Positions 12,323-55,558 of a DNA stretch of 63,981 bases are shown here, in pieces; the stretch's first letter is position 1; each line of letters begins with the position of its first letter. This DNA is from Albugo candida. Lineage: Eukaryota. The notes under the pieces were generated by a model. That model was given only the letters and a program-made list of their open reading frames with translations, had not been told where the DNA came from and did not search any database. The stretch is taken from positions 248,001-311,981 of the forward strand of contig JBDOQK010000018.1 in the NCBI GenBank assembly GCA_040437565.1, given 5' to 3'. A program made the translations under genes and the position numbers.

Positions 12323-14639
12323 ATGAGATTCGCGACGATCGACCACATCATTCGGAAGAAATGGTATCTTTCTACTATCTGACCATTTTGGATGCTATTA
12401 CTGCGCTTTACAGGGATGCGGTGATAATTGGGGGAGGTCACAATGGACTGGTGGCAGCAGCTTATCTGGCTAAAGTCAGGATTTTTCTTAATTTGAACGT
12501 TACGAGTTTACTATGAGACGCAATGGTAGGCAGGCAAACAAGTTTGTGTTCTGGAAAAACGCCATGTTATCGGAGGAGCAGCGGTCACCGAAGAAATTTT
12601 TCCAGGATTCTTATTCTCGCGCGCTTCCTATGTCTTCAGTTTGTTCAGACCCGACATTATCGAATACCTTGAACTGAAGCGCCGTGGACTTCATATATAC
12701 TCACGCGATCCAGGGTCATTCACACCAACTCTCAATCAGAAATCTCTTCTTCTGTGGTCAGATATGGAAAAGACACAACAAAGCATAGGACAATTTTCCA
12801 AAGCAGATGCACTCATGTATCCAAAGTACATTAAGGATTTGGAGGTGTGCACCGTCTGAAATCGAGTTTTTGTTTCGACTTTGACAATCACAACTTTACA
12901 GTTTTTGGTGCAAAACTTCATCCCTATGCTAGACGAGGTTGAGTGGATTCATCTTGTCCTTTGTATCAGCTAATGATTTTATTATGGTTCCCAGATCCCA
13001 CCGGATGCTAGCGTTCTTTTCGACTCCGGTGCAACCGTGAGGTACTTCGCATAATGGTTCATGTCATCAATAATGATAAATGACAAAAGCTTACCTATTG
13101 AAGGAGACGATTGGAAGCCATTCGAGCCATCTGGAATCTTAGTTGCCATGTCCGGAAAATGAGAGGTGAAATTGGAACCTTTCTAGAGTTTTTGACCGCG
13201 CCTGCGACGAAAATTCTCAATCGATACTTTGAGTCCGAGATATTGAAAACGACTCTTGCAACGGATGCAACAATTGGAGCAGCGGTACTAAGAACGGGTA
13301 CCAACCTAGCTTCAGGCTGAGAAAATTCTCCATTTCCAGATCTCTCCTTCAACCCCCGGTTCGGCATATATTTTGTTCCATCATGTCATGGGTGAGGTCA
13401 ATGGTGTGAAAGGAGCTTGGGGTTATGTAAAAGGAGGTATGGGTCAAATATCAACAGTGATTGCTGAATCAGCACAAGAAGCTGGAGCGGAAATTGTGGT
13501 CAATGCTGATGCTCAACGCATAATGACCATGGAGGGCAAGGTTTCTGGTGTGTGTTTGAATGATGGAAGTGTCATTCATTGCGACTGCGTCCTCTCAAAT
13601 GCCGACCCTGGAAGCACAATGTTAGGTCTTATACAGGATCACGAGCTTCCCATCGACGTTCGTAGTCATTTTATGCGATCATGGCAATGTGAGCCAGCAT
13701 CCACAAAAGTGAGCTAATACTTCTATCCGAAAAGAGTCTCAACTAATTCAAATCAAATGGCGTAGATAAATGTGGCTCTCGACAGACTTCCGGACTTTAC
13801 GTGTCGACCAAACGGTAGTGAAGAAGTATCTCCTCTCCCGCACCATTCCGCCACAATACATTTTGAAGATACACTTCAACAAGTAAATTCATTCCACTAG
13901 AAAATCAACCACTGCTACTATTTCTCTAGCTTGAGGATGCCTTCATGGACTACAAGCGAGGTTCAGCTTCTTCTCGTCCGATTATCGAAATGGTGATACC
14001 ATCATCGGTTGATTCGAGCATTTCACCCCCAGGTCTCTCTTTGATTGAACCTTGGCAGAATAGCGTTTTCGACATTGTTCTGGAACAGGAAAGCATGTTG
14101 CTCTGCTTTTTGTGCAATACACGCCATACAAACCTCAAGTGAGTAATGCATACGTGGCCAGAGATCAACCTGCTCACGAAAAAGCGTACAGGAGGGCGCT
14201 TGGAATGCAAGTACTCGAGAGAACTTCGCACGGAAGGTGTTCAATGTCATTGATCAATACGCACCTGGGTTCTCTCAGTCAATTATAAATTACGAAATAT
14301 TGACGGTATGTAGATATCTGTTCCTGCAGCAATACAGAAGGTAATGCATGGCGCAGCCACCAGATCTAGAAGAAGTCTTCTCTTTGCCGAGAGGCAACAT
14401 TTTTCATGGTTCGATGGGCTTGGATCAGGTACGTGCTTTCATTCTTCGACGACACAAAATGTCACACTGATTCGATTCTAAACAAGCTCTTCTGGCTACG
14501 ACCTATGAAAGGAATGTCTGACTACCGAACATGTATTCGAGGCTTGTACCTTTGCTCAGCTGGCACTCATCCAGGAGGTGGAGTGATGGGGGCTTGCGGT
14601 CGTAATGCCGCTATGGTGTGCCTGAGAGATATGTGCTGA
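12323..14639 (+). CDS. PYROXD2: Pyridine nucleotide-disulfide oxidoreductase domain protein 2 / phytoene desaturase-like FAD oxidoreductase (many short introns)
   Basis: Spliced start [34 protein letters not shown] (Rossmann GxGxxG); [39 protein letters not shown]-terminal [24 protein letters not shown]. Confidence 0.93.
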
Positions 14640-14771
14640 TTCTTTGACGTGTGAATCGATTTATTGGACGCCATTGAGTCTATATAACATTGAGAGCTGC
14701 ATGATTGTGCGCATTACCATTCAACTTGCTTAAATGTACAGTCTATTTTTTATCCATCCTAATTGACACCA

Positions 14772-17359
14772 TTACATCTCACTTGATAAAGCTTGGACCT
14801 GAACACTTCTGCGACCAGTAAACGCTGAATCTAGTATGTCGTCTTCGTCCACCAGGAACGAGTTTGTTGTATCACTGACATAACTAAATTTGCCAAAGTC
14901 GTTATCGCTTGTCGCATTGGTAGTATTGCGTCGCGCACGAGCCGTTCGTGTGCTTTTCCAGCTTAGAAACATGTTGAAAATATTGCCACTTGAATCTGCA
15001 CGAGACGCAAGATATTTATCGAAATTCATAGATGCAGATCGAGATCGTTCATGCTCTAAAGAGACTGGAGTTGGTACCCAAGGCGGCTGAATTTTCTTCT
15101 TCAAAATCCAGTCCCACTTGATATCTCGGAAAAAAGGATGGGTCAAAATTTCACTAGTTTGACGTGCTCCAAGCCTTTTCGTCGGGTCCTTTTCCAGCAA
15201 ACCCATAATGAGATCGCGTGCGTCAGAAGGCATGGTGCATTTGGTCGGAAATTTGACAGGGTCCTTCTCAATGAGTTTGTACAAAACCGACACATTCAAA
15301 TGATGAAATGGTCGTTTTGCAAGCAACATTTCATAGATTAAGATTCCCAGACACCACCAGTCGACAGCTTTTCCATAGTCTCGAGTTCGCTTTGGTTTCA
15401 GTAACTCTGGAGCTGTATACGCGGGAGACCCTGCCATCGTTCGAGCTCCGGTCAATAGACTCACGCTTGTCTTAGATAGCCCAAAATCGACCAATGCAAT
15501 GTTGCCAAACTCATCCAGCATTATGTTATCTGGCTTCAAATCACTGTGACATCAAGCAGCATATGTTAGCTACATACAGAAGTGATTTTGAAAAGAGGAC
15601 TGACCGATAGACAATATCACAAGCGTGTAAATGACACAGAGCTAACACAATTTGCGCTGCGTAAAATCGAACGCGTGAAAGTTCCAAAGGTATTTTAATA
15701 CGATGTTCCTTGTTGTTTGAGAATCGATTCATGTGCGTGTACAAGCTTCCACCTGGATAATACTCCATCCCCAAAAATACTCTTGAATTGCTCTGAAACG
15801 CGAATCTGTAGTGAGAAGTGTATTCGATCAGATCCGTGCGGTTGTAGACAGAAGGAGAGACTGATACCTTAATGGAGCAATAAACGGATGATGAACGTCA
15901 CGTAATATCCGCATTTCCGTTTTCGTTCTCAATTTGTCATAAGAGGACATGGAATCTTTTTCCAATACCTTTACTGCGAATATTTGTCCAGTATTCTTGC
16001 GTGCAGCAAGTACAACGGTTCCGAAAGTTCCTTTTCCTAAAACTCGGTTGACGTGAAAATGTTGGATAGAGAGAGAAAGCACTCTTTTAGATGCCGAAGC
16101 TTGTTGTTGTCGATCCAATTTTGGGGCTTTTTTCACAGAGTCAACGACTTTGAAAGCATTGAAATCCACTTCAATTTGCATAAACATACTAACCACTCGA
16201 CCACCAGGGCTGATTTCTATCTCATCACGTGTGTTGAAAACAAACTCACGACGAAGAGTTTTGTTCCAAATCCGTCCTGACGCGATCACTTGTAATGTAT
16301 TAGGCTGTTTCGTAGTTAAACACCGGCTCACTGTGAAATTTCTGAATTGTACATGTTTGTAGAGACCCAGCACAACGTCCACAATTCCTTCCCGACCATG
16401 AAACACACATGATGGTAGAAATTCGCACGGATATCGCAAAGTTAAAACAATATCTGTAGAGCATAACGGGAATAGGGCCAAAAAGCCATTGGAGGAAGTA
16501 ACATCCGCATACAAAGTACTCCAGCATGCGTAGAACTGCTTTGTGACGTTCATATTTCTTGTTTTCAGGTCACCAGAGCTACGCACTGTCTGAGCCAATA
16601 AAGAACCACTCGTAAGCTATGAATAAAAGAATTTGTGACTGTCTACTCATTAATGAAAACGTAAGGAGCTCTTACTGAAGTTTTCTGTCCAGTTGAGTTT
16701 GCTACGGCTTGACTAATCATGCGTATCCAAAGATCTGACTCGATAGTACTGGACGTTTGTATGGAAAACACTTTATTGACCGTCGTGCTGACCAAGACCC
16801 CATTGGTTCGACTTTCGTCTCGTTCAGCACCGGTCACTGTCACCCGACCTCGATAACGCTCTGTGTCGGCCATTGCAATTTCTTTGGAGGAGTAATCTAC
16901 ACAACAATCGCGTGTGAGCTGTGTTATAACTGATTCAAGATGAACTACGTTACATGAGAAGCATGTTCCAGATAAGACTGCGTAGCGATAGCGCCAAGAG
17001 CGCACAACATGGCCCTGTTTCCATATGTATCCTTCCCAATCTGTCTCGAATAGATCTTCAAACGTGTGACTGACTTCGGGAGAAACACTGATACGTTGAC
17101 CCATGTTTGGTATCAAGCCTGTGTCCGTGCCAGTTTCGAGAGAATAGCTGTCACCCATGCTATCTCGATCTTTAGTGAACATTGTCGAGCTCGTACGTGA
17201 TACAAAGGCTGCGTTGTACAATCCTGAAGCATTACTACAGCTATTCATACTATGCTTTTGAGAAATTTGACGCTCTCGCTCCCGTTCACCCATTGCTACT
17301 GCATCTGCATCGGAAAATAAAGTGATCCCTTGCGATTTTTTCCGGTGGCGTTCTGGCAT
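14772..17359 (-). CDS. AGC-family Ser/Thr kinase with N-terminal PH domain and central SnoaL/NTF2-like domain
   Basis: PH: WEGYIWKQGHVVRSWRYRYAVL...WIRMISQA, with an in-frame 57-nt intron at 16897-16953. Kinase: GKGTFG, AVKVLEK, YR|DLKPDN, DFG, APE, DWWCLG, HPFF..IKW..PPWVP and the AGC hydrophobic motif FGKFSY. First ATG at 17359. Confidence 0.92.
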
Positions 17360-18299
17360 AGCGCTTGTTATGGACACTTATCACGATAACTCTGAACTAC
17401 CGCGTGGTGTACGATTAGCACCAGAAGAGTAGTACAGAGGCGACGCGGCAAAGAGTTATCGAGAAGTCTAAGAGACTGGCGAAATGGAAAATAAAGAGAC
17501 TGCTTGAGACAAACATAACGTCCTCTCTAAAACATAAATTTAGAACTCTCGACTCATAAAAAGACGGTCCAGACCCTATCACAGTGATGCCTATCAATAC
17601 GATCATTTATTTTCTCTGCGTATGCGAAGGGTTAGGCAGAGTTCGATTTTGTCATCTGCGGACTGGGTAGTATCACTAAACGAAACGATCTGATCACTAA
17701 TTCCAATTTTATGTATTGTAAAAGTGGGACTATCCTCGCGCCGTATGTGACAGAGTTTGGATTCTGTAAGGAGTGCGTCTATTACAGAGGCTTGACGCTC
17801 AATTACAAGTCAATAGGTTTATCTTTAAAGCCATACATTACGTAGTCACTATGATCGATGGGTGTTTTGTGTCTGCTGTAGTCAGTATCTATATGTATGA
17901 CATTGATGTGCAGCACTGATGTACGCGAGGAAGCATCGTTTGAAGATCTACTCACTCAGCATACACTTCGGGCGTGAACATACACTATTTATATATATAC
18001 TTGGTCAGCTCTTGCAAACATTTATCGGTTTTGCTCCCAAATACTCACAAGTGAAGGCTATGTCAATCTGGTATTATGTCCATTTCAGAGTGGACAGGTG
18101 GAGATTGATTCGGCCTTATGATTGCTCGTTGACTCGTTGAACAGCAGGATGTATTTTACTCACGTTGACCTCCAGAATTTTGTCAGAGACGATTGACAGG
18201 ACTTTACATCAATCAACACTCATGCAAATTGCTCATAGAACCCGATTCTACGAATTCTACTAAAATATGAACTGAAACAAAAGGAGCATATTTCAAACA

Positions 18300-19137
18300 T
18301 TAAAAGATATCGTTCCAAATGTCAATTTCATCATCATCTTTCTTCTCAATAACCTCTTCCAGCTCCTCTTCATCATCTTCAAGTACTTCTGGTAATGCTT
18401 GAATACGTCGGCCCTTGATATTGGCCAGCAAAGTCCCTGCAGGCACTGCAGGTACAATACCATCGGGAAAAGAGATTGTTTCCAGGAAGAACTTTGAGTC
18501 AACGTCTAGACCATTGACATCGATTTCCAGGGTTTTCGGGACTTGATCTGTATTTACGTAACATTCTACTTCGTGGCAAATGTGATTGATGTAGCCTCCA
18601 CGTTTCAAACCTGGACTACCTTCCTCATTTATGTAAGTAATCGGGATGGAAACTTTCCTGCCATGTTTGTACCGAATGAAGTTCACCGTTAGTGGAAGAT
18701 CTGTGACTACATTAGCAATGAGCTAAATCAAAACAGTTGATATCGCGATGTACGATCTATTGCGAACCTGGATGAAACTGTACATCACGCATAATCGCCA
18801 AGACAGGAGGCTGATCTTCAACTTGCACTTTGAAAACCTGGTTATCAATGGATGTCCATAATTTGCGATGCAATCGATCGAACAAAGTCTTCTTTAAAGA
18901 GATCAGCACCTTGTTATCATCACCATCCATTCCTTCTCCATAAAGGATACCAGGTAGCATGCCCTTTTGACGTAATTTACGAGATGCACGTGACCCATCC
19001 TGTGTACGGATATCAAGTGGGAGAACAAGCGTTTTGGTGATATCTTTTGCGGCTTCTTGATGAAACGGTGCAACAAAACGTGCAAACCTGTGGAAATAAT
19101 CAAGACAAACTCTTCGCTGTCTATGGTTGGCTAACAT
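18300..19137 (-). CDS. rplY: Ribosomal protein bL25/CTC (long form), probably mitochondrion-targeted; 2 exons
   Basis: GSRASRKLRQKGMLPGILYG and RDVQFHP|VTDLPLTVNF (intron 18707-18767), then SPGLKRGG, VPKTLEIDVNGL and an acidic tail. The N-terminal extension is Arg-rich. Confidence 0.88.
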
Positions 19138-34129: not shown

Positions 34130-35992
34130 CTAGTCGAGCTCATACAAAAGTGAAGTACGCAACTGAATTCTCAGTGGCTCCTGTTCTGGAATCTTCGGCG
34201 CTTGAAGGATTGTTCCCGTGTCTTCATCATGTGATATTAATTTATGAAGTACGAGTGCTGCATTTTCTGTTGCAGTATCAATTTCCCATGATCCGATTTT
34301 GTAAGGCACAATTTGTGTGTTAAATTCCAATTGATACATTTCTGAGGTTGAGGCTGAGGCGACATCTGATGATTGCGCATCGCTCTTCGTTTTACATTTA
34401 AAGTCCACTCGCAGACTCTTATCAAGACGATGCACTCGGATAGAGTCTGCTTCGATCAGTGGAACATGAATGAATATAGTCAATTCGGTAGCCGTCTCGT
34501 GAGTGGTGTACAGCGGAGCGTTAGCATGCTCCTCTACCATGACGGAATGATTTGATACAAGCGGGCGGTCTATCTCAGAGTGGCCCTCAGAGTCCCCGAT
34601 TGATGTGTCTGTCTTTTGATAAATCGGGTCATTTGATACCATCAAAGCTGTTTCTCGGACAGGAATAAATGCATCGAACTCAACGCTTTTCGTTCTCGGT
34701 TTTGCCTTACTCGTAGATGATTTCTCAGCGCTTCGTTCCACATGTTCATATAGATGACCCGATAAGTCGGGATGCTCCTGCGGGTCTTCTGTTGCCTCTC
34801 GAACTTCAAAAGGGACTATGGGTCGTTGCGGGGTTTGAACGGGCAATGTTATCACCAGTTCTCTTGTGCTCTGGTTGAAACGAGCGAATCCTTCATCTTT
34901 CAGAATAGGAAAAGGGAGGTCGACTTTTAATGTGTCAAACTCGTCTGAATGTATGATTTGTACTTCTTTCTCTGAAACTTCTAATATGATACCGTTGGAA
35001 TTCTCACGTGACGGAAAGGGGATCTTGACTATGATTTCTTTCGGTCTTTTGAGATCTTTGGCATTGCCGTAACACATCATATGGTCCATCCAATCATGCT
35101 CACCACGATAAATGAGCTCATACTGCATTTCTTTCCTCGTTCGTGACGTATTGATTTTTGCTGGCGTATTTGATATAGTCGTAAGCCCAGAAAGCGCCTC
35201 ATTGTCAGAATATGTTTCTGGAGTTTCGAGTGGAGGCTGAAATTGGCTGCTGTGATCTTTCGGTAGGCACATGCGTATTGGTTCTCCAGACTTGTAGCAC
35301 ACTCCTTTCAGAATGCGATAGTTCTTATCCACGTTTGATGTACCGGTATCACAACCCTGATATTGCTTTCGAGTCGCTTCAATGGCGGTATCAATAAGCA
35401 TTTTACGAAAAATTTCTTGCTTTCTGCTATTTTCAATTGTTCTCGGATGATACACGACATCGAAAGTAGATGTCGGATGACCATAATGATCTTTTTCCTT
35501 GCGCTCGGGACCAATGCTATAAGGTAAATGCCAATTTGTTCCTTTGGATGCTCCTGCTGAGGTCTCCATTGTACTTGATGGAGCTTTAATTTTTTCATGC
35601 ATGCATACGTTGATAAATATCTTCCCGGTGGGTTCGTTCTCCTCCTCGCAACTGTACTTTGTTTTGATAACGAAAACAGGAATGGGAGTAATGAGAATTT
35701 TATCTTTTGGCACTTTGTTCTCGGCTTCTAATTGTTTCAAGTACGCTTCTGTTTCAGCGCGATTATTAGGGTCTGAAATCTCTTGCATGTACTCATCAAG
35801 CAGAGCGCGGAACTCCGGTTTTCTTAACGCGGACAGGAACGACTGCTGTTCTTCCGCTGTCATTGCATCATTGTGAGATCTTTTGTCATCATTCTCGCAT
35901 TTGAACTTTTTCTCCAAATTGACGGTATTGTGAATGGAGCTACCTTTTTGCCACTCGTACTTATTCTCACTCATTTGTGCCGTTTGGATCAT
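34130..35992 (-). CDS. DNAAF2: Kintoun/PF13 (dynein axonemal assembly factor 2), PIH1-domain protein, intronless
   Basis: PEFRALLDEYMQEISDPNNRAE.EAYLKQLE, PVFVIKT, KIFINVC, WHLPYSIG, FDVVYHP, PIH1-CS region ARFNQSTRELVITLPV and a C-terminal LLYELD. First ATG at 35992. Confidence 0.9.
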   Translation of the reverse strand: MIQTAQMSENKYEWQKGSSIHNTVNLEKKFKCENDDKRSHNDAMTAEEQQSFLSALRKPEFRALLDEYMQEISDPNNRAETEAYLKQLEAENKVPKDKILITPIPVFVIKTKYSCEEENEPTGKIFINVCMHEKIKAPSSTMETSAGASKGTNWHLPYSIGPERKEKDHYGHPTSTFDVVYHPRTIENSRKQEIFRKMLIDTAIEATRKQYQGCDTGTSNVDKNYRILKGVCYKSGEPIRMCLPKDHSSQFQPPLETPETYSDNEALSGLTTISNTPAKINTSRTRKEMQYELIYRGEHDWMDHMMCYGNAKDLKRPKEIIVKIPFPSRENSNGIILEVSEKEVQIIHSDEFDTLKVDLPFPILKDEGFARFNQSTRELVITLPVQTPQRPIVPFEVREATEDPQEHPDLSGHLYEHVERSAEKSSTSKAKPRTKSVEFDAFIPVRETALMVSNDPIYQKTDTSIGDSEGHSEIDRPLVSNHSVMVEEHANAPLYTTHETATELTIFIHVPLIEADSIRVHRLDKSLRVDFKCKTKSDAQSSDVASASTSEMYQLEFNTQIVPYKIGSWEIDTATENAALVLHKLISHDEDTGTILQAPKIPEQEPLRIQLRTSLLYELD

Positions 35993-37397
35993 TTTGGCGG
36001 ACGATCGCTTTGTCTGATGATTACAGTATCGCCGTATTTCAACCAATCATTTTATATCATCTTGAGAACAAGCTAAAGCACAGTTGGAGCCGTCTTCGAA
36101 AGCGAAGTAGTCTAGTTAGTCGGTGCACTATAGATAGTTGGTGAATTTCTCTTACTTTTATTTGCTTCAATGTGTATCTCCTAACGTATTTTCTGTAGTG
36201 CAAAATTGACATATGCGAGCGTCGCATAGCAGCGGCGACCAGGCAGATTTTAGGCCAATTTTCCGTGTAGGAAGAGATGAAGTATGACAGACGTGTGTAC
36301 AGGTCTATCCCTATAAAGTTCAGCGTGTCGTCACTTTGGATTGAGAAGCAAGCTTATGGCATGATAGCTGATAAAACGAGTCTGAGTGTCGTTAGCGGCT
36401 CAAATAATAGTGTGTTCTGACTTTTCCGCTCAACGTATGTGTGCTCTTTGATCATTCAGGAATGCAGTAGAGCGTTCAAGAGCGAGATAGATTCGCCAGA
36501 GCATTGATGAAGATGTGTGGATGGCATATCGAGGCTCCGTTACACCGTCCACAAAGCATCTACCAAACATCGGAATACCAGCATTGTGGCCACATCCACA
36601 GCGAACTGACTCGGTTCCGATGCTTTATAATGCGCATCAGTGATTCTTTCCGGAGTTTGTTAAAGTTGAAATCATGGTTAATGAAAAGGAGGCTGTACGT
36701 TTTTCCGTCCTGCATCTGCACCAACATTCGACGGTGTTGTCACTTCTGAGTGAGACGCTAACGGGAAGCTGAAACGAGCGAATCCTAAATGCAGAATGTA
36801 GAGGAGCGTCCGGTACTGTTCACAAAGTCGATCGGGTACTGGATATCATAATGTGCCTCAAGACCAACATGGTCGGTTGTATCATGTATAGCGCATTCGA
36901 TGGTTGAGGGAAATTATGCGACAAAATTTGTTAGTTGCAGCAGACTCTCGTTTGAGGACAACGACATCATACAATGCTGTACTCGTTATTCCTACTACAC
37001 CCACGGCCACCCTGGTTCTCCAATTTCGACCTTTTAAGCACGTCCTCGTCCGTACCCTCTTGATGCTAATCCACCGCGAGCTCTCGTACGTCTTCCTATG
37101 ACCGCCTGTCAATCTACAATCATCAAAATTTTAGTGCCCGCAGCTCAAAGCGTCGTAATCTCTTAAGTAAGGCCTTCATTCTAGACGAAGCGCAGGTTTT
37201 GGTAAAAAACAATCCACACGACGCTGAAGTTGACCTTCAGTGATTGCAGCAACGACATGCTGCTTCACAGAGTGTGATACCGGCCAGTCTCTATTCGTCG
37301 TACTTATCCTATTCTCACGACGTTCTTACCCAAATCTAGCTCGACGCAAATCTAGGATTCTCCCGTCATAACTTGCTTCTCCATCCTCATTGAATCC

Positions 37398-38294
37398 ATG
37401 CCCTTCTTCTCCACGTCGTCCGCGAAGGGACTGACGCAGTCTCAAATTCATTTCTTCCATAAGAACGGGTACCTTCACCTTTCTAACGAGCTGTCTGTCA
37501 ATACTTGTCGCAGTCTACGACAACGTGCCATGCATCATGTCGAGCAATTCCAGCAAATTGCATCTACGTCGCCGACGAATGAATCGACACAAAATTTGGC
37601 GGATCGTGCTTTTTTGAGTTCGAGTGATCGAATACACTGTTTCTACGAAAAAGAAGCTTTAGATCAAGATGGGAAGCTACTCGTACCCCCACACAACGCG
37701 ATCAGTAAAATCGGGCACAATTTACACAATCTAGACGTCTTATTTCAGCGCATCAGTTACTCCAACCGCGTCCAGGAAATCCTGAAAAGCCTCGAATATC
37801 GCCGCCCTGTAGCCATTCAGTCTATGTTTCTCTTCAAGCAGCCTCACATTGGTGATGCAGTTAATCCGCATCAAGATGGTTCCTTCCTGGCGACCAATCC
37901 GCAATCTGTTATAGGCTTTTGGTGGGCCTTGCAAGATTGCACCGTGGAGAACGGTTGTCTTTGGGGTCTTTCTGGATCACATCGATCTATTCCAATTCAG
38001 CAGCGCTTCCGAAGGACAACCCAATCCGAATTTGAGACAACGGGCAAGATGGTTACTTTTGATTCGCAACGTCCGATATCAGTAACATGCGATGTTCCCA
38101 TTTTAGCAAAAGCTGGTGATGCTGTGCTTTTACACAATGCCTTTGTACACAGCAGCGAGCAGAACAAGTCTGAGCGCTCAAGGCACGCTTTTACCTTGCA
38201 CGTAATCGAAACGAAAGATACAACATATGAAGCGGAAAATTGGTTGCAGCCCGAAAAGGGAATAAATTCTCTGCCAGTAATGTATTCAACGTGA
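37398..38294 (+). CDS. PHYHD1: Phytanoyl-CoA dioxygenase domain-containing protein (Fe(II)/2-oxoglutarate dioxygenase)
   Basis: QSMFLFKQPHIGDAVNPHQD (HxD), ENGCLW, distal VHSS..N.S.RSRHAFTLH, NWLQ. Confidence 0.92.
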   Translation: MPFFSTSSAKGLTQSQIHFFHKNGYLHLSNELSVNTCRSLRQRAMHHVEQFQQIASTSPTNESTQNLADRAFLSSSDRIHCFYEKEALDQDGKLLVPPHNAISKIGHNLHNLDVLFQRISYSNRVQEILKSLEYRRPVAIQSMFLFKQPHIGDAVNPHQDGSFLATNPQSVIGFWWALQDCTVENGCLWGLSGSHRSIPIQQRFRRTTQSEFETTGKMVTFDSQRPISVTCDVPILAKAGDAVLLHNAFVHSSEQNKSERSRHAFTLHVIETKDTTYEAENWLQPEKGINSLPVMYST

Positions 38295-49422: not shown

Positions 49423-51412
49423 GGAAGAAATGAAACTGGATACAAAGAAATGGCCTAATTTTATCTCGAGTGTTATGGGAATATTGAACAAACTTGATGC
49501 CAGATATACCTATAAACTTTGTTTTCATAATTGATGATATGCTAGCCCGAGAGCTAATAAAACGTACATTTGATGAAGAGATGCAGATTTTACATCAGTC
49601 CCTAGTGGATATTCAGCTGGGGATTGCTGATGAAGCTGAGGAAGACAACTCGAGAATTAACTGGTTTTCAGAGAGGCGTGCAACCTGCGTTATTTAATGT
49701 CGGTGATATGGTTTATTGACGAAGGTCATATGAAACTAAATCCGAATGAATTGATCATTAATTGGTTGGGCCCCTATCGCGCAAGCACTATGTATGATCA
49801 AACACTTGTTCATATGTCGTGCAAACGAACTCCATCACAGTCGTTTGAGAATTCTAACGCGACTCGGCAACTGAAGACATCGTGGCGCATGTAGTCCATC
49901 CATAGTCATCGTAAGTGCAGGGGGAATGAGAGCTACTGGTCAAATGGCATGTATTCGAAGAGGTGGAGGTATCATGGGATTCTTATGCATCTCTGAAGCG
50001 AGGTGTACCTACTCTAGTCTCAAGATATTCACAGATTTGCGACTCTACAGCGTTGAGAAATTGGAATTCCATTGTGGGAGCAGTGTGGGGGATAATTGTG
50101 GTTCAATCCCAATAGAGGCATATACTTACCCATGGGACCTTGTTTGTGATAATCCGAACAAAGCAATTTGAACGCGACTCACTGAGGACCTTGAACACTG
50201 ATCATAGATTCTGATCAGGAGTATGGTACTTCTCAAAAACATCGCTTGCGAGCATGATGGCTAGTATCATCAAAAATAGAGATATCTGGGGTCCTCCCCA
50301 GCTCAGTCGATTCAGCACTTGAGCACACGGACCCCCTGCCGGAGATCGTTTTTTGATCCCCGGCAGTGGGGGAAGCGGTTTGAGCCCACTCAAGCAATAA
50401 GCTTCGAAATATCTGCCTCCCTAGGTTTGCAGTCTGATTTAGGTGATATTCACACGGTCAGGGGCTCATACAGTAATAGGATAAGGAAGGTAGTTCAAAA
50501 CCAGATAAATAGTGTAATGAAATCCTTGACAAAGAAAAAAAAGATATCATCTATAATGGTATATAATAGATTCTGATTAGGAGTAGATCGACATGACATT
50601 TTTCAGTGAAAGTTGGTGGTTTAGATAAGCACTTGTACAGACGGCCGTATTTCTTTCATACATGCTAGTGAGGTCGTTGTGCATATTCTGACGAGTACTG
50701 GAAAAGTTTTCTCTGCGATGCATTGATGGTAGTTGACAGTGTATGATCTCGAAGTGCTCGTACTGTCAGCAGCATTCGTGTGGCTGCGCAGACGACACAT
50801 CTTCTCATGTTTGCGGGCTTAGACACGTGAGCTTTTCTAGCAGAATGTTCGACAATCTTAATCGATCTTTTTACAGATTGTGCTTTATTGCACATAAAAA
50901 TGATTCTTTTTCTTATATTTTGCCATCAGCATAACAACATTTCATTCTGCCTTCCTCGCCAGGGTGATAAGCTACCAGTTTCCTTACAAGGAAATGTATT
51001 GTCAGTGTTGCTTGGACTTCGATGAGTCGATTGTATCATCCCAGTTTTATTTCCCTTTGGACCAAACGAGCCGATGAGTTATTCACCTTCTCACTTCGTC
51101 GTTCTCGAACTGAACAATTAGGTAGCACGTCTTGATTGAGACGCTTTTAATTTTGTGTTCAGTATATCCCACTTCTTGACAAGGTGCCATCTATGATTTC
51201 GCTCCCTCTATAACAGTCTTATCCAATTGACATCACAATTAACATGAACTCACCGTAATACCTGNNNNNNNNNNNNNNNNNNNNNNNNNNNNNNNNNNNN
51301 NNNNNNNNNNNNNNNNNNNNNNNNNNNNNNNNNNNNNNNNNNNNNNNNNNNNNNNNNNNNNNNNTTGATACTCCCACACTTCCACCTTACTACCCACCTA
51401 AGAATCAGCTCC

Positions 51413-54400
51413 ATGTCGACGATGATTTCTGCGACGACCCACGCGGAATGCGTTCGTTTATTGGAATTGGTAACTAATAAACGAGTTCAGGAGACGTGGT
51501 CATGGATGTTCATGGAGTCGACACAACCGTCTTCAATCAAAATAAAAAAACCTATGGATCTCAACACCGTGAAAAAAAATCTAGGGTCAAAACCTTCTCG
51601 ATGTCGCTTTAAGTCTCACGAAAAATTCGCTAAGGACGTTCGACTAGTCTTCCAAAACTCAATTTTATCCTCTGAACCAAATACATCTGTCTATAATGCC
51701 GCGCAACACCTTTTACGCGTTTTTGAGACCGCATACGCCAAAGCCAAAGAAAATGGACTGAGTGCAAGTACTTCCGAGTCATTAAGCGCTGAATGCGTTC
51801 ATTCCGTACCAAAAGTCGAGCGAATTAACTCACAGAATTCGGAATGCGATGACAATTTAAAACCACCACGAACTCTTACAACTGAATCGACGTCCAATCC
51901 CGCTGTCAACCCCCAGAATAATTCCATTCGACCGGAAGATTCTCCCCCCGTTCTTGCGCAAGAAAGTATAAAAATGACCGATTCCCTACAACTTTCGTGT
52001 AAAAATGTGCTCTTGAAAGTGATGCGATACAAAGAAGGCAATGTCGTTCCTGCTGCGCCATTTTTAAAGCCTGTGGATCTCACTCATTTTCCAGACTATC
52101 GCATCAAAATTTTGCGTCGAATGCATTTGTTTGGCGTACAAAAAAAACTGAAAAGCGGATCTTACGCGACGCTGGAAGACTTCGCCGCTGACGTTCGCTT
52201 GGTTTTTTCTAATTGTCTCGTGTATAATAGCGATGTAGTACTAAGTAAAATGATTAGACAGCATGCAACTGTGCTCATGAAGCTCTTCGAGACTCAGCTT
52301 GAGAAGCAGTGTGGAGGATCGTGGCCAGGGATCACAGAGAGGTGGCATTGTCATCAAATTCTCCAGGAAGTTTTGGCACATCGCATTCAGGTGCCAGGGA
52401 AAGAAAAAGATGAGCAGTCTTACTCAGTCAAAAGCGGCGAGGAGACGGCTCAATGGTTTAAATATCCGATCCAGACTTATTATGATTCAATCGACCAGTT
52501 ACCTCACGAGTACTTCTCTATCATCAAGCATCCAATGGATCTCGGAACGGTGACATCGCGGCTTCATGAGCCGCGATATCAATTTGTGCCAGAATTTGCT
52601 TTTGACATCAAGCTGATTTTCGACAATTGCATCCAGTATTGGTCAAATGATCCCCATGGACGTGCGTATTGCGATTCCGCCAATGCACTGCTTACTGTGC
52701 TGAAAGACCAGCTGCATAAACGTTTTGGAGCTTCCGTATGGCTCAAAATGCTTTTTGAACGAGAGCGTGTGACGAAAAGCTCGCTTGTAGCGGCGTGTAA
52801 GAGTGGTTCAGCACAGGCGGTTGTGAGCATTCCACTTCCAAAGCGTGCGAAATCAGAAGCTAAACAACGAAGTTCCAGGCATGAGGGAAGCAATCCGTTT
52901 TCATCAAAAACGCGATCGGCATTTTTGGAAAAGGCGCAATGTCAATTGATACTGAACAAGGTTCGATCTCACAAAATGAAAGGGTATGGAGGTATCGAAA
53001 TCATGACCTCCGGTCCATTTCTGCATGCAGTGGACGTAAGTAAGTATCCAGATTACCTCAGTATTGTCCGTGAGCCGATGGATTTCGCAAAAATTGAGCG
53101 TAAAATCAAAAACGATCGATATCGCACCGTACATGAATTTGCCGCTGATGTCAATTTGGTCTTCACGAATTGCATGAAATACAATAATGATCCCATCGAA
53201 GGCGCTGATATTCGTACGATGGCGTCAACACTTCAAAATTACTTTATACATTTATACGAAGAGACATTCCATGCTTCAAACAATGTCAACCGTATGGCTG
53301 CTTCTTGTCCATCTTCGACGGACTCGGTTTTGCATGGAAAAAGCCTCAAGATGTCGTCATTTGCAGAGAGAAACCTCAACACCAAAATTCTTAAACACCT
53401 AACCAAACCCTCTGAAGGTGTTCCAAGAAAACCTCCGTCACCAGAAATGAAGCTTTGTGCGTCGCCTCCCGCCAAGCTAAATATTATAGGAGAATCTGAG
53501 TTTTCAGGTAAACAGGAAGATGAGGCTTTACGACCGAACAAGGATGAAACAAAACTCGAAGGTGTGGTGTCAAAAGACAACGCTTCGATGAATGGGAGCT
53601 CAAAATCGCTCGATGTCAATTCGGGTCTGCAGCGAAAAAAGCTCAAGAAGGAAAAGAAGGAGAGAAAAAAAAAGGAAAAGAAAGAAAAGAAGGAAAAGAA
53701 AAGGAAGAGAGATAAGAAACGCAAAGAAAACAATGAGAAGCCGCAAGCCTCATCGGTGAACGGATCGGTCCGCACGTTGTCAGTCTCACGCACATTGAAA
53801 GATGCTTTCAACCACGCATCAGAGTATCCAAGTGAATCCGATACAAAATCTGGCGCAGTGAAAGCACCTGTCACAACTACGATATCGGCAGCAAAGGTCA
53901 TCTCATCGCTTGTGTCTTCAAAAGCTTCGAGCGTGGAGGAAACGTCCAAGAAAAATGGATCGAGCAAGAGTAAAAAGAAATTTGCCAATGACATGAGTGC
54001 GTGGGAGTACGTCTGCGATAACGTTATCAGCAAAGTATCCAAGATCGAACACATTTCCAAGCTACATTTTGACCAGCCGCTGTTGAAAATTTTCCCGCAG
54101 CTTACCACAGAATATTTGAAGATGATTGGCGAGCCAATGGATATTGCTACACTTCGATCACAATTGCAGTCGCATGCGATTTCAGCTCCGGCTGAGTTTG
54201 TACGTAAAGGTAGTCTTATTTTTCAAAATGCAATCGATTTCAATTCTGCCGGAGATGATGCCTCGCTGCACGTTCGTGAGATGTCGCAACACTTGCTCTG
54301 GTACTTTCAATCGCTTTGCACGGAACAAACACTCATTTCCGGAGAAGAAGCTCGTGTCGAACTACGAAAAGAGCGTGCCGATGTTATACAAAATATCGCT

Positions 54401-55558
54401 TTGGAAATCAAAGCACGTGAGTGTCAGAAGTTGTTGCGTGGCTTACAGTCACAAAAATATCAGAAGAATAGCTGGCCATTTCAAAAACCAGTCAAGGCTC
54501 TTTTCCCTTTACTCGAGGCTGATTACTTTGAGCTCATCAAGACACCAATGGATTTGGCCACAATTCAGGATAAGTTGAATTCATTCGAGTATTCCACATA
54601 TGGTGACTTCATCCGCGATGTTCGTCTTACCTTCGAGAATGCGATCTTGTACAACCGTGCTGACAAAGGACGGGAAGGGTGGAGTGTGTATGGAGCCGCT
54701 GTGTCGATGCTGAAAGTAATTGACGACTTGTGGGGCACTGTCACATTGGAAGTGGCAGAGAAATTGCGCCGTCGAGAGGTATTGCGGAAAGAACGAGAAC
54801 GTATTATGGAAGCCAAACGACGGGAGGAGCAACGCTTGAAGGAAATACAGGATGAGGCTGATGCAAAAAAGCAGGAAACGGAGCCAAGCACAAAAGAATT
54901 GGCTCAAGCTCCAAAGCCTTTGATCAACTCAGTTTCCGCAACCTGTCGATCGGTCGAGATTGATTCTTTGACGTCACGGAACAAATCGTCGGACATCGTA
55001 ACAAAATCAGGCAACAGTGGGATCGAAAACAAGTCAACTGCGGGTCCGTTTGCTGGTGCAACTGTTACTGTGGCATCATCGTCTTCTTCCAGCGACACCC
55101 GTCTCAAGCTTCAAGTCGTGAGCCGTTCCATTTCGAACATCTCGACGCCCGACCGGACTACTAACAAACTAGAACGGAAAGCGGAAGAAAGACGACGCAA
55201 ACGAGCTCGAAAAGAAGAAGATCTAGCGAGAAAAGAGAAACGCCAACGCATTGCGATTGCAGCGACAGATGACGCGTTACGTGAGGCAGAAGCACGGAGT
55301 TGGCGACGGTTACAGCGATTGGATGTAGCGAAAGCCATCATGCAACGGGAAGAAAGAGAACAGAAATTAAAAGAACAAGAGCAAGCGCGTCTACTGATGG
55401 AAAAGCAAAAATTTCACGCGGATGCGTGGACGGGGAAGTTGCTTCCATTGTCAAAATATAAGTCAAAAAGGGCAGAAGCAGATACTCCTTTTTGGCTTAA
55501 AAAGCGGAATAAGCTACATGTATTGGACGTTTTTGCCGCCGGTATCGACGCTTGTTGA
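51413..55558 (+). CDS. Intronless multi-bromodomain protein (six bromodomains, Lys-rich linker, C-terminal coiled coil)
   Basis: Six repeats of the pattern PM(D/H)L..V/I..KL...Y...F..DV.L.F.N at about 51440-51750, 51985-52310, 52340-52730, 52925-53270, 54000-54320 and 54410-54750. ATG at 51413; a gap lies immediately upstream. Confidence 0.92.
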   Translation: MSTMISATTHAECVRLLELVTNKRVQETWSWMFMESTQPSSIKIKKPMDLNTVKKNLGSKPSRCRFKSHEKFAKDVRLVFQNSILSSEPNTSVYNAAQHLLRVFETAYAKAKENGLSASTSESLSAECVHSVPKVERINSQNSECDDNLKPPRTLTTESTSNPAVNPQNNSIRPEDSPPVLAQESIKMTDSLQLSCKNVLLKVMRYKEGNVVPAAPFLKPVDLTHFPDYRIKILRRMHLFGVQKKLKSGSYATLEDFAADVRLVFSNCLVYNSDVVLSKMIRQHATVLMKLFETQLEKQCGGSWPGITERWHCHQILQEVLAHRIQVPGKEKDEQSYSVKSGEETAQWFKYPIQTYYDSIDQLPHEYFSIIKHPMDLGTVTSRLHEPRYQFVPEFAFDIKLIFDNCIQYWSNDPHGRAYCDSANALLTVLKDQLHKRFGASVWLKMLFERERVTKSSLVAACKSGSAQAVVSIPLPKRAKSEAKQRSSRHEGSNPFSSKTRSAFLEKAQCQLILNKVRSHKMKGYGGIEIMTSGPFLHAVDVSKYPDYLSIVREPMDFAKIERKIKNDRYRTVHEFAADVNLVFTNCMKYNNDPIEGADIRTMASTLQNYFIHLYEETFHASNNVNRMAASCPSSTDSVLHGKSLKMSSFAERNLNTKILKHLTKPSEGVPRKPPSPEMKLCASPPAKLNIIGESEFSGKQEDEALRPNKDETKLEGVVSKDNASMNGSSKSLDVNSGLQRKKLKKEKKERKKKEKKEKKEKKRKRDKKRKENNEKPQASSVNGSVRTLSVSRTLKDAFNHASEYPSESDTKSGAVKAPVTTTISAAKVISSLVSSKASSVEETSKKNGSSKSKKKFANDMSAWEYVCDNVISKVSKIEHISKLHFDQPLLKIFPQLTTEYLKMIGEPMDIATLRSQLQSHAISAPAEFVRKGSLIFQNAIDFNSAGDDASLHVREMSQHLLWYFQSLCTEQTLISGEEARVELRKERADVIQNIALEIKARECQKLLRGLQSQKYQKNSWPFQKPVKALFPLLEADYFELIKTPMDLATIQDKLNSFEYSTYGDFIRDVRLTFENAILYNRADKGREGWSVYGAAVSMLKVIDDLWGTVTLEVAEKLRRREVLRKERERIMEAKRREEQRLKEIQDEADAKKQETEPSTKELAQAPKPLINSVSATCRSVEIDSLTSRNKSSDIVTKSGNSGIENKSTAGPFAGATVTVASSSSSSDTRLKLQVVSRSISNISTPDRTTNKLERKAEERRRKRARKEEDLARKEKRQRIAIAATDDALREAEARSWRRLQRLDVAKAIMQREEREQKLKEQEQARLLMEKQKFHADAWTGKLLPLSKYKSKRAEADTPFWLKKRNKLHVLDVFAAGIDAC

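Follow-up and report, generated by a model that had tools for sequence, protein, structure and literature searches.

A 63,981-nucleotide stretch of Albugo candida DNA (contig JBDOQK010000018.1 of assembly GCA_040437565.1, positions 248,001 to 311,981; hereafter the window, whose numbering is used throughout) carries on its minus strand a gene for a protein of 782 amino acids, in which a PH domain is followed by an NTF2/SnoaL-like domain and then by an Akt-like protein kinase of the AGC family. An original prediction made from the letters of this DNA had placed such a gene between 17359 and 14772, and this location proved correct: the three long open reading frames (ORFs) and the shorter ones called on the minus strand of this region combine into a single 782-codon frame, which runs from the ATG at 17359 to a stop codon ending at 14772 (14772..17359) through five exons (17359-16954, 16896-16676, 16616-15868, 15805-15605 and 15543-14772). 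All of the peptides on which the prediction had relied were found in the product, i.e., KQFYACW (residues 235-241), LFPLCSTD (257-264), HGREGIVDV (282-290), SPGGRVV (345-351), TMAGSPAYTAPE (561-572) and FGKFSY (742-747). Its central observation, that one gene contains an NTF2-like domain between a PH domain and an Akt-like kinase, was thus confirmed.

The four introns are short, begin with GT, end with AG, and appear both in the gene model and as gaps in spliced contigs. Intron 1 (16897..16953, 57 nt) interrupts the PH domain, keeps the reading frame and contains no stop codon; intron 2 (16617..16675, 59 nt, phase 0) separates the PH exon from the exon for the NTF2-like domain and the beginning of the kinase; intron 3 (15806..15867, 62 nt) falls within the kinase N-lobe; and intron 4 (15544..15604, 61 nt) immediately precedes the catalytic-loop sequence RDLKPDN. 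When public contigs were placed on window positions 14600-17600, a 3116-nt contig from run X1 and a 2915-nt contig from run X2 each spanned the full coding sequence and omitted exactly the four predicted introns, as expected for the single transcript that had been proposed. Both runs come from one study and are only guessed to be RNA; their contigs prove the spliced form rather than an expression level. A DNA contig (X11) was colinear with the window. The product is equal in length to F0WKB1 of Albugo laibachii Nc14, from which it differs at 31 of 782 positions without insertions or deletions, and a tblastn search within the window revealed only this one gene of the PH/NTF2-like/kinase family.

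These data bear directly on the possibility that the architecture is an annotation artefact, in which adjacent PH and kinase genes have been misjoined or the middle segment is noncoding or intronic read-through. Some database models of orthologues are indeed cut down to PH-only or kinase-only pieces (e.g., P0026-P0030, P0035 and P0036). However, the uninterrupted exon 16616-15868 encodes both the NTF2-like domain and the kinase N-lobe, including the GKGTFGTV and AVK motifs, and the fusion of these two parts is therefore independent of any splice prediction. Furthermore, orthologues ranging from Albugo to Saprolegnia, at least 14 of them full-length, repeat the entire architecture. Because the spliced contigs from the two runs carry all five exons together, a gene-model artefact is excluded, and we give this explanation practically no credence.

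Three minor observations concern the gene model. An ORF at 16643-17377 reads through intron 1, and the unspliced version thus stays open. In the PH domain of P0004, a Lagenidium giganteum model that lacks a precomputed PH match, ~20 additional amino acids are inserted exactly at the intron 1 site; by their position they look like an intron retained in the annotation. The few differences between the run contigs and the window, including one-base indels, cluster in the 3' untranslated region just past the stop codon (14653-14674), with others scattered, which is consistent with strain-level variation.

The PH domain occupies residues 109-200 (16703..17035, minus strand) and is split by intron 1. 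With a cut-off of 25.1 bits, Pfam PH recognized the orthologue P0001 (34.2 bits), whereas the window sequence, read through intron 1, stayed below it at 22.8; the domain could be aligned to the PH domain of Akt2. Its beta1-beta2 loop displays the pattern K114-x8-R123-x-R125, which we take to be the basic pattern of PH domains that bind 3-phosphoinositides.

The kinase domain (residues 396-664; 15129..16058, minus strand) is split by introns 3 and 4 and was recognized by Pfam Pkinase on exons 3, 4 and 5, with a score of 206.6 bits on P0001. It contains the full set of eukaryotic catalytic-core motifs: a glycine-rich loop at 403-410 (GKGTFGTV), K425, E443, YRD at 525-527 (YRDLKPDN), DFG at 545-547 and APE at 570-572. 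Judged by these motifs, it is a catalytically competent kinase. In a sequence search of the PDB, Akt1 and Akt2 accounted for the top 23 distinct sequences (E 5e-73 to 2e-66), ahead of SGK1, PKC-eta, RSK and PKA; by search ranking, the kinase is closest to Akt1/2 among solved structures. Both hallmarks of an AGC kinase, an activation-loop threonine and an F-x-x-F-S/T-Y hydrophobic motif, are present, and the Akt/PKB enzymes share them. The activation segment, TMAGSPAYTAPE (residues 561-572; 15405..15440, minus strand), aligns to 'tfcGtPeylAPE' of Akt2 and is close to invariant among orthologues. It had been called atypical, and its TMAGSPAY does diverge from the TFCGTPEY of Akt, but the segment is not defective: T561 occupies the position of the Akt T-loop phospho-threonine in the Akt2 alignment and keeps the equivalent of the Akt PDK1 site. 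The hydrophobic motif FGKFSY (residues 742-747; 14880..14897, minus strand) is intact as had been stated, and F742, G743, F745, S746 and Y747 are invariant in 17 orthologues.

The usual picture of an Akt-type kinase is that of a PH domain connected to a kinase by a short linker. The short linker is replaced here by a folded domain of 145 amino acids. Residue 108 is the last of the PH domain in the aligned Akt2 chain, and the kinase alignment starts at 151, whereas the corresponding residues of the oomycete protein are 203 and 396; the gap between the two domains is therefore 192 residues (204-395) as against 43 (109-150), as unlike Akt as had been claimed. The middle segment itself had been estimated at ~125 amino acids, and this figure was too small, since the folded domain comprises ~145 (residues 222-366; 16146..16580, minus strand). 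The oomycete protein differs from Akt further in a conserved extension of 35 amino acids past the hydrophobic motif and in a variable N-terminal region of 105 residues.

To assign the fold of the middle domain, we used AlphaFold2, Foldseek, VIA-align and the ESM Atlas. The AlphaFold2 model of a 186-residue segment, built from an alignment of 19 rows, had a mean predicted local distance difference test score (pLDDT) of 81 and a predicted template-modeling score (pTM) of 0.73; 114 of the 186 residues scored at least 90, and the core of the domain was mostly above 90. DSSP assigned to the model helices at positions 13-37, 42-51 and 74-88 and strands at 52-61, 71-73, 89-101, 107-118, 123-135 and 141-150, i.e., a long helix, a helix, a strand, a short strand, a helix and four long antiparallel strands. 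The predicted structure is an alpha+beta cone with three helices packed on a five- or six-stranded, strongly curved antiparallel sheet, which defines the NTF2-like superfamily at the level of the fold. Foldseek returned at least 500 PDB matches at E ≤ 1e-3, with a best E-value of 4.6e-7 and a best TM-score of 0.80 (root mean square deviation (rmsd) 1.9 Å, to 3ebt); the top matches were ketosteroid isomerase, NTF2-like proteins of unknown function, NsrQ, limonene epoxide hydrolase and PhzA/B. Upon re-scoring with VIA-align, 954 of 1000 chains reached Z ≥ 8, and the highest Z was 16.0, over 127 of the 131 residues of 1tuh (rmsd 2.1 Å). [quoted passage not shown] Among those listed, the closest structures are enzymes or binders of small molecules (ketosteroid-isomerase-like proteins, TerC, limonene epoxide hydrolase, LinA and designed binders of cortisol and digoxigenin), and the protein-binding members rank lower, with the CaMKII hub at Z 13.2 (rank 33) and NTF2 at Z 12.6 (rank 47). 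Protein-language-model features from the ESM Atlas likewise placed the domain in SnoaL-like clusters (0.95 and 0.94). The assignment of an NTF2/SnoaL/ketosteroid-isomerase-like fold is therefore secure, and the structural part of the original prediction, which had proposed a SnoaL/NTF2-like fold for this segment, is supported by the model and the structure searches.

Sequence comparisons of the middle domain gave a different picture. The Pfam scan that had been suggested as a check on the middle segment returned no family of any kind at E ≤ 10; SnoaL_2 (PF12680) produced no match at its gathering score of 27 bits, and NCBIfam yielded nothing relevant at E ≤ 1. Membership in Pfam SnoaL_2 is thus not secure by sequence. 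A phmmer search with the 186-residue segment against 1.84 billion representatives gave only three matches at E ≤ 0.001, i.e., one orthologue cluster, the repeat protein P0037 and an Achlya model of a mitogen-activated protein kinase (MAPK), P0038. P0037 was dismissed as a relative, its match being short and of a low-complexity-like kind. In a profile search for stand-alone relatives, none of 1581 candidate proteins of 73-293 amino acids matched at E ≤ 0.1, a result weakened by the word filter applied. As a separate observation, residues 220-230 at the beginning of the first helix (VRSSGDLKTRN; 16553-16585) follow a motif R-S-S-x-D/E-W-K-x-R-N, in which every AGC-family orthologue keeps R, S, S, K, R and N; the motif is missing from the MAPK-family domain described below.

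A search with exon 3 retrieved 36 proteins, all 36 of which carry the NTF2-like region, and every named source is an oomycete (genera Albugo, Pythium, Globisporangium, Lagenidium, Phytophthora, Nothophytophthora, Peronospora, Peronosclerospora, Plasmopara, Saprolegnia and Aphanomyces). Database labels of these orthologues typically read 'AGC/AKT protein kinase', with no annotated domain between PH and kinase. The middle domain was conserved throughout an alignment of 17 orthologues, and its identity between Albugo and Pythium, Phytophthora, Saprolegnia or Aphanomyces was 37-65%. The shares of invariant columns, calculated from 14 rows after three models with obvious gaps or insertions had been left out, were 44% for the PH domain, 20% (30/149) for the NTF2-like domain, 68% for the kinase domain, 49% for the hydrophobic motif plus C-terminal extension and 1% for the N-terminal 105 residues. 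The Akt-like PH/NTF2-like kinase appears from these comparisons to be oomycete-specific, and its architecture is conserved across the oomycetes.

The domain is not confined to AGC kinases, a point that the original prediction had missed. A profile search of longer proteins gave 89 matches, consisting of 32 AGC orthologues and 57 oomycete proteins of the CMGC/MAPK class (~800-1200 amino acids), with F0WA53 (P0085) as the member in Albugo laibachii. The profile behind these matches included one MAPK-family sequence; as a clean test, we therefore compared an AGC-only profile with a MAPK-only profile and obtained a probability of 97.9 and an E-value of 3.5e-13 over 125 aligned columns. In Pfam, the order in the MAPK family is PH, SnoaL_2-like, kinase; in P0085 these lie at residues 125-216, 306-382 and 706-992, respectively. 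SnoaL_2 matched at the same place in 14 of 15 scanned members, with 16.0-26.0 bits, all under the cut-off of 27. When parts of the AGC protein were compared by BLAST with ten MAPK-family proteins, the PH domain (7e-16) and the NTF2-like domain (8e-11) matched colinearly, and the N-terminus and the tail of the AGC protein had no match. [quoted passage not shown] Thus, as judged by these alignments, PH plus NTF2-like is one inherited unit, in the same order and N-terminal to the kinase, that precedes two unrelated oomycete kinase classes, AGC and CMGC/MAPK. This suggests that the pair is a portable regulatory device and not an accident of one gene. The two families differ in the kinase itself, in an extra, possibly C2-like, region that the MAPK family has between the cassette and the kinase, and in the PH beta1-beta2 loop, which reads RWEERY in the MAPK family and RSWRYRY in the AGC kinase. 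The oomycete MAPK family with a PH domain is probably the PsSAK1 group; PsSAK1 was reportedly described as a novel MAPK owing to its PH domain by Li et al. in MPMI in 2010, and it is reported to be needed for zoospore viability and infection.

Several features of individual MAPK-family proteins were also observed. Residues ~385-600 of P0085, which include NPAGTLHVVVFRGEQI, and the same region in other members gave weak C2 signals, i.e., 0.88 in the ESM Atlas and, with Pfam C2, an E-value of 0.011 in 1 of 15 proteins (P0056) and of 0.15 in P0038; a PH-NTF2-C2-MAPK order for the paralogue is a lead only. P0038 (Achlya hypogyna, 782 amino acids) begins with a MAPK C-lobe at 6-136, followed by PH, SnoaL_2-like and weak C2 regions, opposite to the other members, in which PH comes first and the kinase last; from this order, it is probably a merger of two tandem genes. 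In Aphanomyces stellatus, two neighboring members (P0042 and P0089) lie on one contig.

We hypothesize that the NTF2-like domain is a non-catalytic, membrane-held sensor cone, whose liganded state would control activation of the kinase. According to this model, the PH domain would bring the kinase to a phosphoinositide-bearing membrane, the cavity of the cone, beside the membrane, would accommodate a lipid tail or hydrophobic ligand, and the liganded state of the cone would decide whether phosphorylation of T561 and S746 can activate the kinase. We favor this reading because enzymes and binders of small molecules dominate among the nearest structures, conserved polar residues are few across the two families and the partner domain binds membranes. 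A ligand-binding regulatory role has been proposed for NTF2-like domains fused to Ser/Thr kinases (PMC3924330). We infer that the cone is non-catalytic, has an open pocket, binds a ligand and controls kinase activity, and we put the probability of this reading at roughly 40%. The gating by a ligand that the original prediction had put forward is plausible, as a prediction.

Several results weigh against a sensor cone. None of the three AGC-branch sequences scanned, i.e., the segment from the window (E ≤ 10) and the orthologues P0001 and P0028 (both E ≤ 1), contained a Pfam SnoaL or NTF2 family, and when the domain alignment served as the profile for a PDB sequence search, the only matches were to C2 at chance level (E 0.04-1). 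The polar residues invariant in both kinase families number five (Y238, S262, N327, R349 and D360), and several of them belong to motifs with a structural role in many SnoaL-like proteins; because the invariant polar residues are so few and several have such a setting, there is no clear ligand-contact signature. In a full-length AlphaFold2 model of P0001 based on 17 sequences, the mean pLDDT was 46, interdomain contacts were unreadable and only the NTF2-like part was confident. Sterol auxotrophy cannot drive the presence of the domain, because Saprolegnia and Aphanomyces, which we understand to make their own sterols, carry it too. Finally, the CaMKII hub, which of the NTF2-like domains on kinases is the one studied best, works by oligomerization (PMC3924330).

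This last precedent is the basis of another explanation, which the original prediction had not considered and in which the NTF2-like domain would dimerize or oligomerize in the manner of NTF2, the CaMKII hub and many proteins of the SnoaL-like kind, and kinases would meet at the membrane for trans-autophosphorylation or cooperative activation without any ligand. The CaMKII hub (PF08332, of the NTF2 clan) resembles the oomycete domain in that an NTF2-like fold is covalently joined to a Ser/Thr kinase, and the hub of S. rosetta (5ig0) is a structural match with Z 13.2 and an rmsd of 3.3 Å over 122 residues. That it is the best-studied such domain (PMC3924330), that oligomerization has also been raised for the NTF2-like domain of plant MKK3 (PMC5177658), and that conservation extends over the whole domain in the MAPK branch, as would fit protein-protein surfaces, all speak for this possibility. 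However, the hub ranked under ~30 NTF2-like chains of the small-molecule type, and Pfam CaMKII_AD (PF08332) had no match at E ≤ 10. The hub is C-terminal and builds 12-14-mers, whereas the oomycete domain is N-terminal to its kinase and paired with a PH domain. The hub itself also has a cavity for a small molecule, gamma-hydroxybutyrate (GHB) (PMC8346900, PMC11400628). We consider an oligomerization module a real possibility, although a doubtful one.

Plant MKK3 provides a second precedent, with an NTF2-like domain fused to a kinase of the MAPK pathway and conserved across a whole lineage; the domain is C-terminal, and its role is described as still unreported (PMC5177658). The differences from the oomycete proteins are that the MKK3 domain follows a MAP2K and has no PH partner, whereas the oomycete kinases are an AGC kinase and a MAPK and the domain precedes them. 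Nucleocytoplasmic shuttling has been proposed for the MKK3 domain (PMC5177658), and we considered whether the oomycete domain might bind Ran-GDP or FG-nucleoporins and thereby move the kinase into or out of the nucleus. NTF2 itself (1ar0) is a structural match with Z 12.6, and the Phytophthora AGC kinase PsYPK1, a different protein without a PH domain, is regulated by nuclear localization via its N-terminal region (PMC7010300). Nevertheless, NTF2 ranks 47th, after SnoaL and ketosteroid-isomerase-type chains, Pfam NTF2 (PF02136) had no match at E ≤ 10, and the partner domains, PH in both families and possibly C2 in the MAPK family, point to membranes and not to nuclear pores. Shuttling appears very unlikely. 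PsYPK1 was also considered as a characterized orthologue and rejected, being a protein of 870 amino acids with no known N-terminal domain and a kinase at 542-861 (PMC7010300).

The C-terminal extension (residues 748-782, 35 amino acids; 14775..14879, minus strand), which includes SFLVDEDDILDSAFTGRRSVQ and was recognized by its conservation, lies beyond the hydrophobic motif and may be a docking or phosphorylation element. This raises the possibility of intramolecular docking or autoinhibition, in which the cone would bind a peptide of its own protein, e.g., the C-terminal extension, or the kinase N-lobe, and so replace or extend the PH-kinase contact of Akt until released by membrane binding or phosphorylation. 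Block 742-782, 49% invariant over the 14 orthologue rows and conserved on a par with the PH domain, has no assigned role, and PH-kinase contact does autoinhibit Akt (PMC7438110, PMC9417420). However, the extension was not found in the MAPK family, where BLAST gave tail matches only at E ≥ 3.9. Because the MAPK family has the cassette without a detectable equivalent of the AGC tail, docking specific to the tail fails to explain why the cassette is shared. The interdomain contacts on which docking would depend could not be read from the full-length model at its mean pLDDT of 46. We regard a docking role as rather unlikely.

A further group of precedents is bacterial. The NTF2-like domains of unknown function DUF3828, DUF3887 and DUF4878 are fused to Ser/Thr kinases, with ligand binding proposed (PMC3924330), and a SnoaL_2 domain is present in sigma-J of M. 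tuberculosis (PMC5766207). The likeness is that non-catalytic NTF2- or SnoaL-like domains are proposed or shown to regulate an attached signaling domain. The bacterial systems differ in being prokaryotic and mostly extracytoplasmic sensors, or in residing on a sigma factor, whereas the oomycete domain is cytosolic, eukaryotic and paired with PH; none of these bacterial domains has detectable sequence similarity to it. The alternative that the cone is an enzyme fused to the kinase, i.e., an isomerase, cyclase, dehydratase or epoxide hydrolase, derives from the prevalence of enzymes among the top structural matches. Against this, few polar residues are conserved across both families and there is no recognizable catalytic pair or triad; Pfam, the PDB profile search and NCBIfam gave no sequence-level membership in any enzyme family; and in the context of signaling proteins NTF2-like domains tend to be non-catalytic, as has been argued (PMC3924330). 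A catalytic role therefore seems most improbable.

Neither the CaMKII hub, nor MKK3, nor the bacterial kinases pair an NTF2-like domain with a PH domain or set it between PH and an AGC kinase. The original prediction knew of no characterized example of this architecture. This held to the extent that no oomycete kinase with a described NTF2 or SnoaL domain came up in full-text searches of the literature, but NTF2-like domains on kinases do have precedents. A 2010 survey of the P. infestans kinome counted 20 AKT-subfamily kinases, six of which had recognizable PH or PX domains; neither NTF2 nor SnoaL is entered in its table of accessory domains or mentioned in its main text (PMC3019232). Thus, NTF2-like domains on kinases are known, and what is new is a lineage-specific Akt-like kinase, with a sister MAPK, that carries an unannotated PH plus NTF2-like cassette. 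There is a corresponding annotation gap, in that Pfam remains below threshold on both families and the main text of the 2010 survey includes no such accessory domain (PMC3019232).

Assuming that a sensor cone is indeed present, a broader hypothesis is that PH plus NTF2-like is an oomycete-specific coincidence detector, which would register a phosphoinositide membrane together with a second hydrophobic signal (a sterol, fatty acid, oxylipin or host-derived lipid) and would be wired both to an Akt-like growth or survival kinase and to a stress and zoospore MAPK, with a druggable pocket restricted to the lineage. We consider this extended form unlikely as it stands. If true, it would place such a detector in pathogens of plants and animals. 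Major pathogens of crops and fish are found among the oomycetes, in which few targets are absent from their hosts. A lineage-restricted domain whose fold typically offers a small-molecule pocket would be an attractive handle for ligand discovery and inhibitor design. For a whole eukaryotic lineage, the conserved, folded cone in place of the linker implies that control of the kinase has a step that is different or additional.

A functional link between the kinase gene and neighboring ORFs in the window is not evident. Pfam gave no match for six other window ORFs of at least 200 amino acids or for a 77-amino-acid ORF at 14406-14639. The ORFs with Pfam matches are a Ribosomal_TL5_C ORF (18300-18686, minus strand), an ORF with PIH1 N-terminal and CS-like domains (34130-36046, minus strand), a PhyH (phytanoyl-CoA dioxygenase) ORF (37398-38294, plus strand), and an ORF of 1397 amino acids with six bromodomain matches (51365-55558, plus strand).

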